IMG/VR virus record: IMGVR_UViG_3300047284_000516
Coordinates: 15,895-79,894 of that record
Source of the DNA: a virus
Direction: 5' to 3' (one strand)
DNA: 64,000 bases
Part shown: positions 25,928 to 31,617 of the stretch, piece by piece
Layout: each line of letters starts with the position of its first letter
Position numbering within the stretch: the stretch's first letter is position 1
Notes under the pieces: generated by a model
The model's input: only the letters and a program-made list of their open reading frames with translations
Databases searched by the model: none
What the model was told of the DNA's origin: nothing
Made by a program: the position numbers and the translations under genes

Positions 25928-26744
25928 ACCATGGTTACAAAATAAAGGCAGTGTATGGAAGGATACAAAAGCCTTTCTTACGTGTGCAAAAATTGCTATA
26001 GAGCAGATCCATGACCTCTATGATAAACCGGTTATATACACGGATAGACTGGGTGTTGAGGTATTTACGGAGCTTACCTCTAAATGCACACCTATCGACA
26101 CATATACTAATGTATTCGATGGAGTGCCTCTAAATCTCTGGGCTTATCCAAAGCTACTCACATATAATCAACAAGAAACTTCATTTTTTCATTTCGACTT
26201 AGACTTCCTCCTTCTCCATCCCATACCACCATCATACTGGAAAGCTGATATAGTAATACAGAACTACGAGGACTTAAAGCCTCAGCATATGAGGGAATAC
26301 TATAACCTCGATCAGTATGGCGATCAATACCATCTTCCGAATGTACTGCGTAAAAATGATCTGGAGCTGATTCCTGCTGTCAATATGGGATTTGTTTATT
26401 TTCGGGATCCTGTTTTAGCTAAATTCTACTCCGATCTTGCTATTGAATTTATTACAGAAAACAGAAGCATACTGCAAACAGATAAGGCAGTACATATGTG
26501 TGTAATAGAGCAGCAAATCCTAGGTAATATTATCCATGATATGCGTTTAAAAACTATGGAGTTAATTAATTGGAAAGAACCAGACGATGCGTGGAGTCAA
26601 AATTTTGCTCATATATTTGGCAAAGAAAAGTTAACAGATCACTGGTCCAATGTCCTTAATTTAGCCAAACAGACCGGTAATATGTCAAATGTTGACTATA
26701 TAGCTTCAATGCTGGATGATAGGAAAAGTTATGAAATTAACTAA
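25899..26744 (+). CDS. GT-A-like hypothetical protein, paralog 2
   Basis: Same motifs as the upstream gene (IYTD, WAYPKL.TY, HFDLDF, VNMG, CVIEQ). Confidence 0.6.
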   Translation: MRCVATWSFEPWLQNKGSVWKDTKAFLTCAKIAIEQIHDLYDKPVIYTDRLGVEVFTELTSKCTPIDTYTNVFDGVPLNLWAYPKLLTYNQQETSFFHFDLDFLLLHPIPPSYWKADIVIQNYEDLKPQHMREYYNLDQYGDQYHLPNVLRKNDLELIPAVNMGFVYFRDPVLAKFYSDLAIEFITENRSILQTDKAVHMCVIEQQILGNIIHDMRLKTMELINWKEPDDAWSQNFAHIFGKEKLTDHWSNVLNLAKQTGNMSNVDYIASMLDDRKSYEIN

Positions 26745-26862
26745 ATTACTCAAGAAATATTATATCGCATGCCTTAGTCACAAGAAAAAGGCAGAACGGA
26801 ATATCTTTAACAAATTACTACGCAAGTCCTTAAAACAAAAACGCACCCATAGTGCACAGTGA
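26731..26862 (+). CDS. Small basic protein (43 aa, not in ORF track)
   Basis: MKLTKLLKKYYIACL...; SD AGGA; fills the gap. Confidence 0.4.
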   Translation: MKLTKLLKKYYIACLSHKKKAERNIFNKLLRKSLKQKRTHSAQ

Positions 26863-26868
26863 GTGGAT

Positions 26869-27171
26869 ATGAAAAAAATACTTTTTAGTCTCTTGTTCGT
26901 CTCTCTACCAGTATTTGCTGCTCCTTTTGATGTTACCCTAAGGCATCCATGTGACACAACACAGATAGTTGCAGACTCTTTACTCAATAAGCACAATGAG
27001 TTGCCTATTGTATATTCGGAGATAATGGGGGACAATCAGCAACTAATTCAAATTACAGTTTGGTATAACAAAGATAAACGAACAGTTTCAGTGGTTCAGA
27101 CATCCAAAACAGCAAAGGTGAGCTGTATCATTGCTGTGGGTGAGCAAGCAGAAGTAGTAAGTATTAAATAA
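26869..27171 (+). CDS. Exported protein with signal peptide
   Basis: MKKILFSLLFVSLPVFA signal peptide; two Cys. Confidence 0.65.
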   Translation: MKKILFSLLFVSLPVFAAPFDVTLRHPCDTTQIVADSLLNKHNELPIVYSEIMGDNQQLIQITVWYNKDKRTVSVVQTSKTAKVSCIIAVGEQAEVVSIK

Positions 27172-27347
27172 CTCGGTGTCGCCTAGCCTGGTAGCGCATC
27201 TGAGTATAATAAAGGAAATTCTCTCTGTGGCGTAACCTGGCAGCGTACTACGTTTGGGGCGTAGTGGTTCTGGTTCAAATCCAGACAGGGAGACCAATAT
27301 GTAATGGTAGCAGAGGGTCCAAGGTTCAAATCCTACCATCGAGACCA
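27172..27347 (+). pseudogene. Split, degenerate tRNA (Pro-type body); halves 27172-27202 and 27311-27347 flank an intact tRNA-Pro
   Basis: Acceptor CTCGGTG/CATCGAG-A-CCA pairs across the insert; D-arm AGCCTGGTAGCGC; anticodon stem TCTG/CAGA; T-loop GGTTCAAATCC. Confidence 0.75.
27221..27296 (+). tRNA. tRNA-Pro (UGG)
   Basis: Cloverleaf; CTACG-TTTGGGG-CGTAG anticodon arm; TTCAAAT T-loop; CCA end. Confidence 0.9.
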
Positions 27348-27354
27348 CTTTGAA

Positions 27355-27428
27355 GCCCCTATAGTTAAATGGTATAACATCGGTTTTGTAATCCGAGGTT
27401 CGCAGTTCGATTCTGTGTAGGGGCACCA
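27355..27428 (+). tRNA. tRNA-Thr (UGU)
   Basis: GCCCCTA/TAGGGGC acceptor, TTTGTAA loop, TTCGATT T-loop, CCA. Confidence 0.9.
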
Positions 27429-27435
27429 TATAAAA

Positions 27436-27545
27436 CTCTTTGTAGTAGCTACAGCGGAACAACTGAAATGCTTGCCATTTCCGGAAAAAGCAAGTACCAG
27501 CCGTGAAGAGTAGGGCTACCATGGATTCAAGCGCCGTACAGAGAG
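27436..27545 (+). ncRNA. Putative structured ncRNA with T-loop-like hairpin
   Basis: Nested stems CTCTTTGTA/TACAGAGAG, GTAGCT/GGCTAC, TGCTTGC/GCAAGTA plus a GGATTCAAGCGCC hairpin; no ORF on +. Confidence 0.55.
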
Positions 27546-27581
27546 CTTTTATGAGTTTCCTTCAAGCAACTAAATATCTAC

Positions 27582-28184
27582 ATGGAATATATCTCCGATG
27601 TCGATGTTTATCATAATATCGACCTAAACCATCTGTGGATCTATGATAAACTGATCCTCTCTAAGAAGTTGGGCTACCTCTGCGGTCCTTCTGGTATACC
27701 TGTGCCTACAGATGCTTGGTATATTGTGAGACCAATAACAAATATTCATATGATGGGAAAGGGTGCATACCGAGCGTTTTTGACTCCCACATCTTGTAAT
27801 ATTCCAGATGGATATTTTTGGTGTGAGATGTTTGAGGGTAGACATTTTTCAATTGATTATTTTTGGGGTGTACAGCATCTAACGGTAGAGGGAATAAAGC
27901 GTACTGATAGATTAGACAGATTTTATAAATGGACGAAGATAGATTTCAATTTCACTCTACCAGACTGTTTAAAAGAGGTGGCTGTTGTCAACAAGTGGTT
28001 GAATATAGAAATGATTGATGGTAATATTATTGAAGCTCATATGAGATTTAATGATGATTTTCGAAATCACAATGGAAGTGAAATCTTTCCAGTGTGGAAA
28101 GATGATCCCAGCTTTGTTGTTCCAGGAGCGGAATGGTATGAAAGCAAAGCTGCTGATCGATTGGGCTTCTGGGTAATGTCATAG
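27582..28184 (+). CDS. Hypothetical protein, possibly ATP-grasp-like
   Basis: YIVRPITN..MMGKGA, FWCE.FEG.H.S.DY, NIEMIDGNIIEAHMR; CTAAATA upstream. Confidence 0.55.
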   Translation: MEYISDVDVYHNIDLNHLWIYDKLILSKKLGYLCGPSGIPVPTDAWYIVRPITNIHMMGKGAYRAFLTPTSCNIPDGYFWCEMFEGRHFSIDYFWGVQHLTVEGIKRTDRLDRFYKWTKIDFNFTLPDCLKEVAVVNKWLNIEMIDGNIIEAHMRFNDDFRNHNGSEIFPVWKDDPSFVVPGAEWYESKAADRLGFWVMS

Positions 28185-28221
28185 AAAAATACATTCAGGA
28201 AGAATAGCAGTACCAAATAAT

Positions 28222-28298
28222 ACCACCGTGGTCTAATCGAATAAGGCAACGCTCTTCTAAAGCGTACGATGGGGGTTTGAATCCCTCCGGTGGTGCCA
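28222..28298 (+). tRNA. tRNA-Arg (UCU)
   Basis: ACCACCG/CGGTGGT acceptor, ACGCT-CTTCTAA-AGCGT anticodon arm, CCA. Confidence 0.88.
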
Positions 28299-28320
28299 AA
28301 CAACTTTAGGTGAACTTTTG

Positions 28321-28539
28321 ATGGTTACTCGCTACAACGAAGACGGAAGTATTACTGATGGTACGTTTGATGATGTTAAAACAAGCTGCCGTGAGAGATT
28401 TGCAAATGGCATCCACAAATACACTATTAGCAAGATGTGGATAGAAACAACCAATCAAGAATTCCTATCAAGACTGGAGGACTGGATGAAAGAGCCTTGG
28501 GGCACATATCCACCTCTCCCTCCTAGAATGAAAAAATAA
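28321..28539 (+). CDS. Hypothetical protein between tRNAs
   Basis: ORF with SD-like AGGTG. Confidence 0.5.
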   Translation: MVTRYNEDGSITDGTFDDVKTSCRERFANGIHKYTISKMWIETTNQEFLSRLEDWMKEPWGTYPPLPPRMKK

Positions 28540-28624
28540 GCGATTGTGGTGGAATTGGTAGACACAGCAGACTTAAAATCTGCCGGCGCAAGCTGTGCGG
28601 GTTCGACTCCCGCCTTTCGCACCA
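28540..28624 (+). tRNA. tRNA-Leu (UAA)
   Basis: GCAGA-CTTAAAA-TCTGC anticodon arm, long variable arm, GGTTCGACTCC, CCA; two U-U pairs in the acceptor stem. Confidence 0.88.
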
Positions 28625-28641
28625 ATAATAAAGGATAACAA

Positions 28642-29121
28642 ATGTTTAAACTAGATTTAGATGAAGTCAAAGAGTTCATTCAAAATACCTCCCCTTCCTC
28701 TAAAATCTATTTGGGATGCGATTCAGAAAGAATCCTCCATAAGAACATTTGGTACGCTGACTACACTGTAGCAGTAGTAATCCACAAAGATGGTAAACAT
28801 GGCTGCAAACTATTTGGTGAAGTAATCAGAGAAAAAGACTTTGACCAAAAGGAAAATAAACCAAGATTTAGACTTATGAATGAAGTGTATAAAGTATCGG
28901 AACTATACCTAAACTTAGCAGAATGCTTTGGCAATAGGCATGTAGAAGTTCACCTTGACATTAACCCAAATGAGATGTATGGTTCTAGTTGTGTAATCAA
29001 TGAGGCAATTGGATATATTAGAGGCACTTGTAATGTAATTCCAATGGTAAAGCCAAAAGCATTTGCTGCTACTTGTGCTGCCGATCGCTACAAGGAAGTT
29101 AGAAATATCCGATCGGTGTGA
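28642..29121 (+). CDS. RNase H-like protein (YkuK/DUF458-like)
   Basis: IYLGCDS, RLMNEV, EVHLDIN, AFAATCAAD. Confidence 0.75.
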   Translation: MFKLDLDEVKEFIQNTSPSSKIYLGCDSERILHKNIWYADYTVAVVIHKDGKHGCKLFGEVIREKDFDQKENKPRFRLMNEVYKVSELYLNLAECFGNRHVEVHLDINPNEMYGSSCVINEAIGYIRGTCNVIPMVKPKAFAATCAADRYKEVRNIRSV

Positions 29122-29216
29122 TAGAAATATAATAATGGATTAAAATCCATAATTCAGGGAAACTATTGATAAGTATCCATGCGGTACTTAACTCCTCAAC
29201 ATGAAAAGGAAGAAAA

Positions 29217-29765
29217 ATGAAAACAGTAGGTGATAAGATTAGTGAATTTGTAGTAACTGGTGTCAATCCTGGTAGCGACCAATTCTTTGACATCACAGAA
29301 AAGTCTTTTGAAGGTAAATGGAAAGTTATTGTATTCTATCCAAAAGATTTCACATTTGTATGCCCAACTGAGATCGTTGCATATGATAAGTTGTTCCAAG
29401 ACTTTGCAGATCGCGATGCCGTCCTTCTGACAGGTTCTACAGATAACGAATTCTGTAAACTTGCTTGGCAGCGTCATCATGAGGATCTCTCCAAGATCAA
29501 ACATATTCAGTTTGCTGACACTCAGCGTCGTAATGCAGATTACGATACTCTGAGTCTTGCTGATCAACTTGGTGTATTCTTTGCACCTGCAGGCGCAGCA
29601 CTTCGCGCAACATTTATTGTTGATCCTGATAATGTGATTCAGCACGTAACAGTTAATAACCTCAACGTTGGTCGCAGTCCAGATGAAACATTGCGTATTC
29701 TCGACGCACTTCAGACTGGCGAACTCTGCGCATGTAACCGTGCTGTGGGTGGAGAGACCCTATAA
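29217..29765 (+). CDS. ahpC: Peroxiredoxin AhpC
   Basis: FYPKDFTFVCPTEI, RATFIVDP, VGRS.DE.LR, GELC. Confidence 0.95.
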   Translation: MKTVGDKISEFVVTGVNPGSDQFFDITEKSFEGKWKVIVFYPKDFTFVCPTEIVAYDKLFQDFADRDAVLLTGSTDNEFCKLAWQRHHEDLSKIKHIQFADTQRRNADYDTLSLADQLGVFFAPAGAALRATFIVDPDNVIQHVTVNNLNVGRSPDETLRILDALQTGELCACNRAVGGETL

Positions 29766-29767
29766 TC

Positions 29768-30433
29768 ATGTTAGAGACCATCTGTGATACAATGGTCGAA
29801 GCTTACCGTCGCAATTGGATTACTAGTCGCGACGGTAACGTAAGCATTCGGCATCATGATAGAGACCATTTTTACATCACTCCATCTGGTGTGCGGAAAC
29901 AGACTTTGCAACCGGATCAGTTCAAGAAGATCGGCATTGTAGAAGGATTTTATGGTCAACCTCCTCGTTTAGAGCATAATTATGAAGTACGTGATTACAC
30001 AGACATTAGTAAAAATCTGAAACCTAGTGGTGAGATTCCATTGCATTTTGGATTGCAAAAAGAGTTGGGGCAGCACTCTAGTGATGTGAGGGTTGTAATG
30101 CATTTTCATCCAACTTACTGTGTAGCTGCGATGCATGCTGGGATTGAGCTTGCAGACCTAACAAAAGATTTCCCCGAGCTATCGCGGTATACGAAGGTTG
30201 CTTCAAATGTAGGAGATGTTCCTCCAATCAGTCAAGAACTTGCCGATCGCTGTTTTGAAAATCTTAAATTGGATAAAAATGGCTTCGTAAAATATGATAT
30301 TGTTGGAATCAAAGGTCACGGTGTAGTGAGTATCGATACTTCACCGTGGAGGGCTTTTGAACACATTGAACGGCTTGAGCATATTTGTCAAATAGTACTA
30401 GTTTCGAAAGGATACACAAATGCAGTGGGTTGA
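29768..30433 (+). CDS. Class II aldolase/adducin family protein
   Basis: DGNVS, ITPSG, PSGE..LH, MHFHPTY, KGHGV. Confidence 0.88.
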   Translation: MLETICDTMVEAYRRNWITSRDGNVSIRHHDRDHFYITPSGVRKQTLQPDQFKKIGIVEGFYGQPPRLEHNYEVRDYTDISKNLKPSGEIPLHFGLQKELGQHSSDVRVVMHFHPTYCVAAMHAGIELADLTKDFPELSRYTKVASNVGDVPPISQELADRCFENLKLDKNGFVKYDIVGIKGHGVVSIDTSPWRAFEHIERLEHICQIVLVSKGYTNAVG

Positions 30434-30929
30434 TACACTTAAAGAAGGGTTACCAGATTATGCAAAGGACACCCGCCTTAATATCGATGCAGTAATTAAA
30501 CGTAGTGCGCTTGATCCAGAGATGGTTGAGTATGTGGCACTAGCTGCAACATTTGCTACTGGTAATACAAAGCTCTGGACATGGATTGCTAGTCAACTTA
30601 CCAACGAGACCGAAAAGAATGCCGCACTCACAGCAGCTTCTTTAATGGGTATGAATAATGTGTGGTATCCGTATGTCGAGATGGCAGAAGATGAGCAATT
30701 AACAGGTCTACCTGCTCAGCTTCGTATGAATGCTATTGCTACGCATGGCGGTACAACAAAGGCTAGATTCGAAGCTTACAGTCTAGCTGCATCAATTGTT
30801 GGTAAATGTCACTTCTGTGTCAAAGCTCACTACAATACTTTGAAAAAAGAAGGGTACACTGTTGAACAATTGAGAGATTTAGGTAGAATATCATCAGTGA
30901 TTGCAGCAGTATCTAAGATCATGGTTTAA
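30420..30929 (+). CDS. ahpD: Alkylhydroperoxidase AhpD
   Basis: PDYAKD.RLN, MGMNNVWY, CHFCVKAH (CxxC). Confidence 0.92.
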   Translation: MQWVDTLKEGLPDYAKDTRLNIDAVIKRSALDPEMVEYVALAATFATGNTKLWTWIASQLTNETEKNAALTAASLMGMNNVWYPYVEMAEDEQLTGLPAQLRMNAIATHGGTTKARFEAYSLAASIVGKCHFCVKAHYNTLKKEGYTVEQLRDLGRISSVIAAVSKIMV

Positions 30930-30933
30930 TCAT

Positions 30934-31010
30934 GCCCTGGTAGCTCAGTTGGTCAGAGCAGGCGACTCATAATCGCTTGGTCGGGGGTTCAAGTCCCTCC
31001 CGGGGTACCA
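30934..31010 (+). tRNA. tRNA-Ile2 (CAU, lysidine type); Met less likely
   Basis: GGCGA-CTCATAA-TCGCT anticodon arm matches enterobacterial tRNA-Ile2 as I recall it; CCA. Confidence 0.85.
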
Positions 31011-31016
31011 AACACT

Positions 31017-31040
31017 AGTCCCTCCTAGCGAGGGACTTTT
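31017..31040 (+). terminator. Rho-independent terminator
   Basis: AGTCCCTC-CTAGC-GAGGGACT followed by TTT. Confidence 0.8.
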
Positions 31041-31056
31041 CATATGACCTTAATGG

Positions 31057-31084
31057 TTGACTATTTACTTATTTGTGGTATAAT
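31057..31084 (+). promoter_or_regulatory. Sigma70-type promoter with extended -10
   Basis: TTGACT-N16-TATAAT preceded by TGn. Confidence 0.75.
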
Positions 31085-31110
31085 AATCATATGAACCGTG
31101 AGGAATCAAT

Positions 31111-31617
31111 ATGATTAAAAATACTGATGTTAGAGTAAAAAGTAGAGAGACCATATTTGTTTCACGCCAACTTCTATATGGGCGCAGTAAGCGTATTAGT
31201 TATGTAAAGACAGCGATCGCTCTGATAGATAGGTCATTACCTGAATTCCGTAAACTACTCAATCTTCCTGATCTGTTGGTTTTTAGGATCAGTAGAATGA
31301 AAGGTAAATATGCAGGGAAGTATTGTAGTGGAGATAATGTGGTATGGCTTTCACCTCTCGCTAAGTGGGAGCAGTTACTAGAAACTATTGCCCATGAGCT
31401 TGTCCATGCTGAACAATATCATCAGAAACGATTATCTTCTGTTTTCCTAGATCGTACAGGTTGGGTGCTTCAGTGGAATGGAGATCTTAATTATTCTAAG
31501 GGTACTACATATAATTCATATCGTAAACAGCCTTGGGAAATAGAAGCTTTTGATCGGCAGGGGCCTCTTGCAGATCAGATCAAACAATACTTTGAAAGAG
31601 AAGGAATTACACTATGA
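31111..31617 (+). CDS. HExxH metallopeptidase-like protein (related to 24610..25080)
   Basis: TIAHELVHAEQY...PWEIEA. Confidence 0.72.
   Translation: MIKNTDVRVKSRETIFVSRQLLYGRSKRISYVKTAIALIDRSLPEFRKLLNLPDLLVFRISRMKGKYAGKYCSGDNVVWLSPLAKWEQLLETIAHELVHAEQYHQKRLSSVFLDRTGWVLQWNGDLNYSKGTTYNSYRKQPWEIEAFDRQGPLADQIKQYFEREGITL

Follow-up and report, generated by a model that had tools for sequence, protein, structure and literature searches.

One tRNA gene is nested in the anticodon loop of another in the DNA of an uncultured T4-like phage, and we consider this locus to be, with a probability of about 0.62, the scar of a tRNA-Pro replacement driven by an HNH endonuclease whose gene has since been lost. 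The DNA derives from an IMG/VR contig of 79.9 kb that is ~45% complete, and the stretch of 64,000 nucleotides that was analyzed (hereafter, the window) carries T4-like replication genes, among them one for a gp41-like helicase. ARAGORN and Rfam delineated a small tRNA cluster on the + strand comprising tRNAs for Pro(UGG), Thr(UGU), Arg(UCU), Leu(UAA), and Met(CAU). The nested Pro locus opens this cluster and is located directly 3' of the stop codon of an ORF of 100 aa whose N-terminus is hydrophobic.

The outer parts of the locus were compared with a tRNA-Pro profile built from 34 intact phage tRNA-Pro genes and run with nhmmer. Positions 27172-27202 corresponded to profile positions 1-31 (E 0.0019) and positions 27305-27347 to profile positions 35-77 (E 2.3e-6), with approximately three anticodon-loop positions absent between the halves. 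The two outer parts are colinear pieces of one tRNA-Pro(UGG) gene enclosing a 99-nt insert (Table 1), and alignment with ten phage tRNA-Pro genes placed the break between U33 and U34, with a margin of three bases on either side. The 5' fragment contains the acceptor strand CTCGGTG, T8, the D arm (GCCT...GCGC), and the anticodon-stem strand TCTG(A); its end can be placed only to within 27202-27205, because the last bases may be part of the spacer. The 3' fragment presents, in order, the anticodon TGG, T, A, GCAGA, the variable loop GGGTC, the T arm (CAAGG/TTCAAAT/CCTAC), the acceptor strand CATCGAG, A73, and CCA. The right spacer showed a weak likeness in alignments to ATTTGGAG, the right junction of the nuclease-bearing nested units described below.

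Table 1. Coordinates of the nested tRNA-Pro locus and its downstream neighbor, of the allele segments of the outer gene, and of a nested tRNA-Ala unit from another contig
Feature	Location	Strand	Evidence or content
Outer (resident) tRNA-Pro 5' fragment	27172..27205	+	nhmmer profile, alignments
Left spacer GAGTATAATAAAGGAAATT	27202..27220	+	15-19 nt before inner tRNA
Inner (incoming) intact tRNA-Pro(UGG)	27221..27296	+	ARAGORN; Rfam tRNA 51.7 bits
Right spacer ATATGTAA	27297..27304	+	8 nt
Outer (resident) tRNA-Pro 3' fragment	27305..27347	+	nhmmer profile, identity to L097
tRNA-Thr(UGU)	27355..27428	+	ARAGORN and Rfam
Outer gene, first segment	1-13 of outer gene		Best match: cassette tRNAs of L122/L126
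Outer gene, second segment	14-33 of outer gene		Best match: common type
Outer gene, third segment	34-53 of outer gene		Best match: L097, 19/20
Outer gene, fourth segment	54-77 of outer gene		Best match: L121 and Sugarland
L112 nested tRNA-Ala unit	216-953 of L112		Ala 5' half, HNH ORF 306-848, complete tRNA-Ala(UGC) 841-915, Ala T arm and acceptor strand

An earlier note, made from the letters of the window, had described a complete, divergent tRNA-Pro(UGG) nested in the anticodon loop of another tRNA. Both points were confirmed, the nesting by profile colinearity, by the pairing of all seven acceptor positions, and by the intact inner gene, and the completeness of the inner tRNA by ARAGORN and by its Rfam score. 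The 5' half was placed correctly in that note, but the 3' half begins at 27305 according to the profile and the alignment, rather than at 27311. The outer tRNA is also not anticodon-less, as one option in the note had it; the alignment showed that TGG is retained in the correct register on the 3' side of the insert. The Rfam tRNA model did not detect the outer halves, and ARAGORN called only the inner tRNA-Pro at the Pro locus. When tRNAs were scanned for nested-like flanks, the window was the only case among 382 (raw count).

The interruption of an anticodon loop, the position occupied by bacterial group I tRNA introns, could point to an element removed at the RNA level, such as a group I intron, an archaeal-type tRNA intron, or a permuted or split tRNA gene. 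We regard this reading as scarcely credible, since no intron family matched within 26500-31500 at E-values up to 10, a group I core would not fit into 99 nt, and the insert is itself a complete tRNA flanked by structurally defective outer exons. The intron mode of ARAGORN did not find the outer gene. With the -io option over 27100-27450, the program reported a "tRNA-Stop(tta)" with a 109-nt intron at 27221-27428; we rejected this call as a false chimera joining the 5' part of the inner tRNA-Pro to the 3' part of tRNA-Thr, and intron-tolerant tRNA calls are therefore unreliable in tandem arrays. Insertion by an integrase at a tRNA attB site was likewise rejected, because the 99-nt insert contains no ORF, the resident gene is not restored, and a complete second gene is supplied.

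Next, we focused on the state of the outer gene. Its acceptor stem (CTCGGTG/CATCGAG) is paired at 7/7 positions, including one G-U pair, and is followed by A-CCA. Reading of the sequence confirmed both this 7-bp stem and the TCTG/CAGA anticodon stem reported earlier; the latter is closed toward the loop by A31.G39. The partial decay that had been ascribed to the outer D and T stems was also verified: the D stem retains 3/4 pairs, with a C12.C23 mismatch, and the T stem (CAAGG/CCTAC) retains 3/5. Position 9 is C (A9C) and position 37 is T, and the gene departs from its intact relatives at conserved positions. An alternative pairing of ATGGTAG with CTACCAT, which the earlier note had pointed out, is possible but probably due to chance, as a perfect stem of at least 7 bp arose in 3% of shuffles of the 51-nt stretch. 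Spliced at 27205/27305, the outer gene gave a gap-free alignment to an intact tRNA-Pro of the CTCGGTG type, with 62/77 positions identical, and ARAGORN accepted it only at a lowered threshold (-ps90).

The sequence of the outer gene is a mosaic. The 5' half showed 18/18 identity to the tRNA-Pro of Aeromonas ST4, Pectobacterium POP15, and Cronobacter CR3, and the 3' half showed 25/26 identity to that of the metagenomic phage locus L097. Each of four segments best matches a different tRNA-Pro allele type (Table 1), with the switches falling at the D loop, the anticodon loop, and the T loop; these conserved loops are natural sites for recombination to resolve, and the mosaic stems record its end points. 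The 5' strand of the outer T stem, CAAGG, fits the near-constant (C/T)AAGG of other nested units, and its 3' strand is locus-specific. Based on the mismatches in the D, T, and anticodon stems, together with this patchwork of allele types, the outer gene is judged to be dead.

These features bear on whether the locus might produce a functional two-piece RNA, in which RNase P and 3' processing would free the inner tRNA and leave the paired halves to serve as decoy or aminoacyl carrier or to be re-ligated into a tRNA. Retention of the acceptor stem, A73, CCA, the T loop, and the anticodon TGG is compatible with such a product, as is a minimum-energy fold in which the outer acceptor stem closes off the 176 nt; however, that fold was no better than those of shuffled sequences (z = -0.81), and the spliced gene fell below the default threshold of ARAGORN. 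The defects A9C, C12.C23, A31.G39, and T37, a T stem with 3/5 pairs, and stem strands drawn from different alleles also argue against this reading, as do homologous relics at other loci that lack whole arms. A search for an Rnl1-type ligase found none in the contig, which is ~45% complete and in which the control search was silent as well. We consider a functional two-piece RNA very unlikely. The anticodon-less two-piece tRNA or decoy that had been proposed at first is unsupported, given three defective stems, the allele mosaic, and the more truncated halves present in nuclease-bearing loci.

The neighborhood of the locus provided information regarding its earlier state. In Klebsiella Sugarlandvirus phages and in Aeromonas phage ST4, tRNA-Pro is located directly before tRNA-Thr, and the outer Pro 3' part together with tRNA-Thr of the window showed 75% identity to the Sugarlandvirus Pro-Thr pair. 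These pairs and the homology of the halves indicate that the state before insertion was an ordinary Pro-Thr pair, and by this comparison tRNA-Thr(UGU) is taken as the ancestral downstream neighbor of the outer tRNA-Pro.

Several other elements of the cluster deserve description. Approximately 110 nt immediately after tRNA-Thr (27436-27545, with the match at 27444-27535) showed 89% identity over 93 nt to L102:7752-7843, which is located directly after tRNA-Tyr in the contig of a distantly related T4-like phage, and a stem-closed element is also present after the tRNA-Thr of L110. The stretch resembles a small RNA conserved among phage tRNA clusters; its predicted fold was no more stable than those of shuffles (z = -0.48). 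A PF04308 RNase H-like gene at 28642-29121, inside the tRNA cluster, encodes a product with 60-65% identity to those of genes within the tRNA clusters of the T4-like contigs L095, L101-L103, L106, and L107, and this gene is a conserved companion of these clusters. On the minus strand of L108 (460-640), upstream of a tRNA-Thr 98.7% identical to that of the window, there is a tRNA 5' fragment with the D-arm-like sequence GTCGTCTAGTGGCTAGGA, followed by a C-terminal HNH endonuclease remnant (...CPNCHS...); this appears to be another broken tRNA adjoining a decaying nuclease gene.

Both tRNAs of the nested locus have intact counterparts elsewhere. A degenerate pattern derived from the outer 5' half retrieved five metagenome contigs (L112-L116) with a perfectly paired, intact tRNA-Pro(UGG) of the CTCGGTG type; these contigs are neither close relatives of the window phage nor the same locus, though the gene is uninterrupted there. 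The inner tRNA-Pro has C1-G72, A73, G37, and an encoded CCA, and its counterpart is free-standing at L110:11229-11304 (93% identical), in the order Pro-Ala-Thr and with no outer halves around it. In exact-pattern scans of viral contigs, the 26-mer from the inner 5' end matched L110 only, and no contig matched the inner 3' end or either outer half.

Protein and pattern searches found no close relative of the window phage, and neither an empty site nor a nuclease-bearing allele at the exact locus was seen among their results. Relatives of the downstream 200-aa ORF were found at six loci, all without tRNAs, and relatives of the helicase at 80 loci with no more than 67% identity, none of which had a tRNA-Pro at the syntenic place; a DUF6734 search in metagenomes gave no matches. 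The search for intact and split versions in relatives that had been advised at the outset thus yielded an intact outer-type gene in L112-L116 and a free inner-type gene in L110, but no close relatives.

Two of the contigs with the intact outer-type gene revealed an HNH nuclease ORF alongside a tRNA gene. In L113, an HNH endonuclease ORF ends exactly on an intact outer-type tRNA-Pro, and in L112 an HNH ORF whose product is 48% identical to that of L113 sits inside a tRNA-Ala gene (Table 1). In the L112 unit, the complete tRNA-Ala overlaps the end of the HNH ORF, and the outer Ala acceptor strands pair at 7/7 positions, including G3.U70. Searching viral contigs with an alignment of the two HNH proteins identified 16 more loci, for a total of 18. 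The HNH ORF abuts or overlaps the start of a tRNA in 16/18 contigs, the tRNA being tRNA-Pro(UGG) in 13, tRNA-Ala in two, and tRNA-Met in one.

The tRNA-Pro profile placed many of these units inside broken tRNA-Pro genes. A tRNA-Pro 5' fragment is located just upstream of the cassette in 12/13 Pro loci; it reaches the anticodon loop (profile end 36-40) in L119, L120, L123, L124, L125, L129, and L131, and its match is shorter or weak in the other Pro cassettes; ends across the HNH loci range over profile positions 24-40. A 3' fragment (profile 51/52-77) follows the cassette in 6/13 Pro loci. The acceptor strands of the fragments pair at 7/7 positions in L118, L119, L122, L123, and L125, and the stems themselves differ between those loci (CGGAATG/CATTCCG, CGGAGTA/TACTCCG, and CGGAGTG/TACTCCG). 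The relic T stems are mismatched, with a 5' strand that is nearly always (C/T)AAGG and a 3' strand that is CCTTG, CCCAC, or CCTGC according to the locus. Comparison of L118 with L122 showed that their likeness is confined to the nested unit, including the relic halves, and that the flanks are unmatched, as homing with co-conversion predicts. The outer allele type of the window is itself HNH-linked in L113 and L131. At E 0.01, no partial tRNA-Pro fragments were found in the other 111 loci fetched (~377 tRNAs).

Some of the cassettes and related loci showed further peculiarities. In L121, two successive tRNA-Pro 5' fragments, at 1169-1203 (profile 2-36) and 1306-1327 (profile 3-24), precede one HNH cassette, which suggests repeated invasions leaving layered scars. 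In L119, L120, L123, and L125, approximately 150 nt (~1913-2067) separate the cargo tRNA-Pro from the resident 3' relic and end in ...CCACCA like a second tRNA; from this ending, some cassettes may contain additional RNA genes. In L113, a sequence at 735-812 that immediately precedes the tRNA-Pro relic and the HNH cassette resembles tRNA-Ile(GAU) with a spoiled T loop GGGGCAGAACC and is not called by ARAGORN. In the cultured jumbo phages Serratia BF (L134:370-444) and Xanthomonas XbC2 (L133:317-391), an HNH homologue is located just downstream of a tRNA-Pro or a Pro-like "tRNA-Pseudo". The CDS abutting tRNA-Pro in Sugarland was considered as a member of the HNH family and rejected, as it is not an HNH protein of that family.

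The recurrence of this architecture also bears on the integrity of the assembly. The contig is metagenome-assembled, and an assembler might have interleaved strain variants carrying different tRNA-Pro alleles; however, the junctions have no repeat in common, the longest exact run between the inner and outer genes is the 11-nt T loop, which is far from both junctions, and the same nested architecture was found in many independent assemblies. An assembly chimera is therefore highly improbable.

The window has the same nested layout as the HNH cassettes, namely a resident 5' fragment ending in the anticodon arm, an intact tRNA of the same isoacceptor, and a pairing 3' fragment. When all six frames of the 79.9-kb contig were searched with the L112 HNH protein (E up to 1), no HNH of the cassette family was found, and only 15-19 nt, with no HNH ORF, separate the 5' fragment from the inner tRNA. 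The window is therefore at most a nuclease-less derivative. The left spacer aligned with the last codons of the L121 HNH ORF that abuts tRNA-Pro, with TGAGTAT in common, over a short likeness of 13/19 columns, and the cargo tRNA of L121 has the same D arm as the inner tRNA. The mean score of the spacer was 2.9 against 14 HNH-ORF tails, which are mutually related, and -2.0 against 369 other tRNA upstream flanks; the single best-scoring match was the flank of an unrelated, non-cassette tRNA. An interpretation of the spacer as a repeated promoter-like motif was checked and rejected. We regard the spacer as a putative leftover from the 3' end of an HNH ORF since deleted, and the resemblance of the locus to the cassettes suggests that a nuclease gene was likely present here and was deleted later.

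The same data must be weighed against an origin independent of any nuclease, in which illegitimate or microhomology-mediated recombination, for example during co-infection, brought a short-flanked tRNA-Pro, paralogous or foreign, into the resident gene, and the halves are a neutral scar. The lack of a nuclease ORF from both the insert and the contig, the insert length of only 99 nt, and the unrelated flank that scores as high as the ORF tails against the left spacer are in line with this possibility. The breakpoint is also not identical to that of the HNH cassettes, since the window has its anticodon 3' of the insert and the 5' fragment of the L119 group runs through the anticodon. Nevertheless, the nesting, the break in the anticodon loop, the identity of the isoacceptor, and the mosaic T stem with its (C/T)AAGG strand all fit the HNH-linked units, and partial tRNA-Pro relics in the sample were found only beside the HNH family. 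We thus treat nuclease-independent insertion as a possibility to be taken seriously, although it is an improbable one.

According to the preferred reading of an HNH-driven replacement, the outer halves would be the dead remains of a resident tRNA-Pro(UGG) that once lay directly before tRNA-Thr. A DNA-level break in the anticodon loop would have disrupted this gene, and a foreign tRNA-Pro(UGG) would have been installed there, preserving tRNA-Pro function for the phage. The most likely agent is a "cut-and-replace" homing cassette, an HNH gene ending on its cargo tRNA-Pro. The predicted HNH enzyme would break an intact tRNA-Pro gene, the broken halves would pair with the relic halves of the donor as homology arms, and the cassette would be copied in. 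Sequence near the break would be co-converted and the distal ends would remain those of the recipient; copying of this kind would explain why acceptor strands co-vary between loci and why relic T stems are mismatched. The window would later have lost the nuclease ORF, keeping ~19 nt of its tail, so that the cargo tRNA remains inside the scar. The earlier note had offered allele replacement by insertion at the anticodon as one option, and the HNH/tRNA-Pro units in split genes favor that part of it, but the proposed link to RNA-level anticodon nucleases is unsupported here, the evidence being in favor of a DNA-level event.

More speculatively, the nuclease-less unit might persist as a hitch-hiker and immunity allele, with its halves serving as homology arms through which HNH enzymes provided in trans by co-infecting phages would copy the unit into intact tRNA-Pro genes, and with its split target and divergent cargo shielding the tRNA-Pro locus of this phage from cutting by those enzymes; we consider this proposal rather unlikely.

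Several known systems provide points of comparison. SegB of T4 is a free-standing GIY-YIG homing endonuclease encoded in the T4 tRNA gene cluster, which recognizes a tRNA T-loop motif, cuts at the 3' ends of tRNA genes, and drives inheritance of the tRNA region in co-infection (PMC2330249). It resembles the proposed system as a selfish nuclease gene in a phage tRNA cluster and is a precedent for nuclease-driven turnover of tRNA genes; in contrast, its gene is of the GIY-YIG type and located between tRNA genes, with no split tRNA or nested halves, whereas the window has no nuclease gene. The closest parallels are the cassettes of L113 and L118-L131, which comprise a 5' fragment, an intact tRNA-Pro(UGG), and a 3' fragment with a complementary acceptor strand, and have (C/T)AAGG in a mismatched T stem. 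The window differs from them in its insert of 99 nt versus ~600 nt, its lack of an HNH ORF, its almost complete halves, and its anticodon 3' of the insert.

The trans homing reported for T4 mobE and I-TevIII indicates that an element without its own nuclease can persist and still be mobilized by a related enzyme (PMC2790892). That element is a group I intron in a protein gene, whereas mobility of the window unit is only conjectural. Group I introns interrupt the anticodon loops of bacterial tRNA genes, and some are mobile via an encoded homing endonuclease (PMC3984707). The interruption of a tRNA gene is common to these introns and the window, but the introns restore the tRNA by RNA splicing, whereas the window has no ribozyme and function is provided by a second gene copy. 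Our literature searches found no description of a nuclease and tRNA cassette nested in its cognate tRNA gene, nor of any phage tRNA gene lying inside another.

In the usual view, homing endonucleases spare their hosts in one of two ways, by residing inside self-splicing introns or inteins or by residing between genes. The HNH/tRNA units point to a third way, in which the element breaks its target gene and carries a spare copy. The window appears to represent a late stage in the life cycle of such a cassette, with the nuclease gone, the cargo tRNA kept, and the scar decaying; it adds to the nuclease-bearing units an end stage without the nuclease in which both halves are nearly complete, along with mosaic evidence for co-conversion. 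For annotation, tRNA halves adjoining phage tRNAs are to be read as scars, not as split genes. Nuclease-driven replacement would also be a concrete force behind the rapid exchange of alleles among the clustered tRNA genes of phages.
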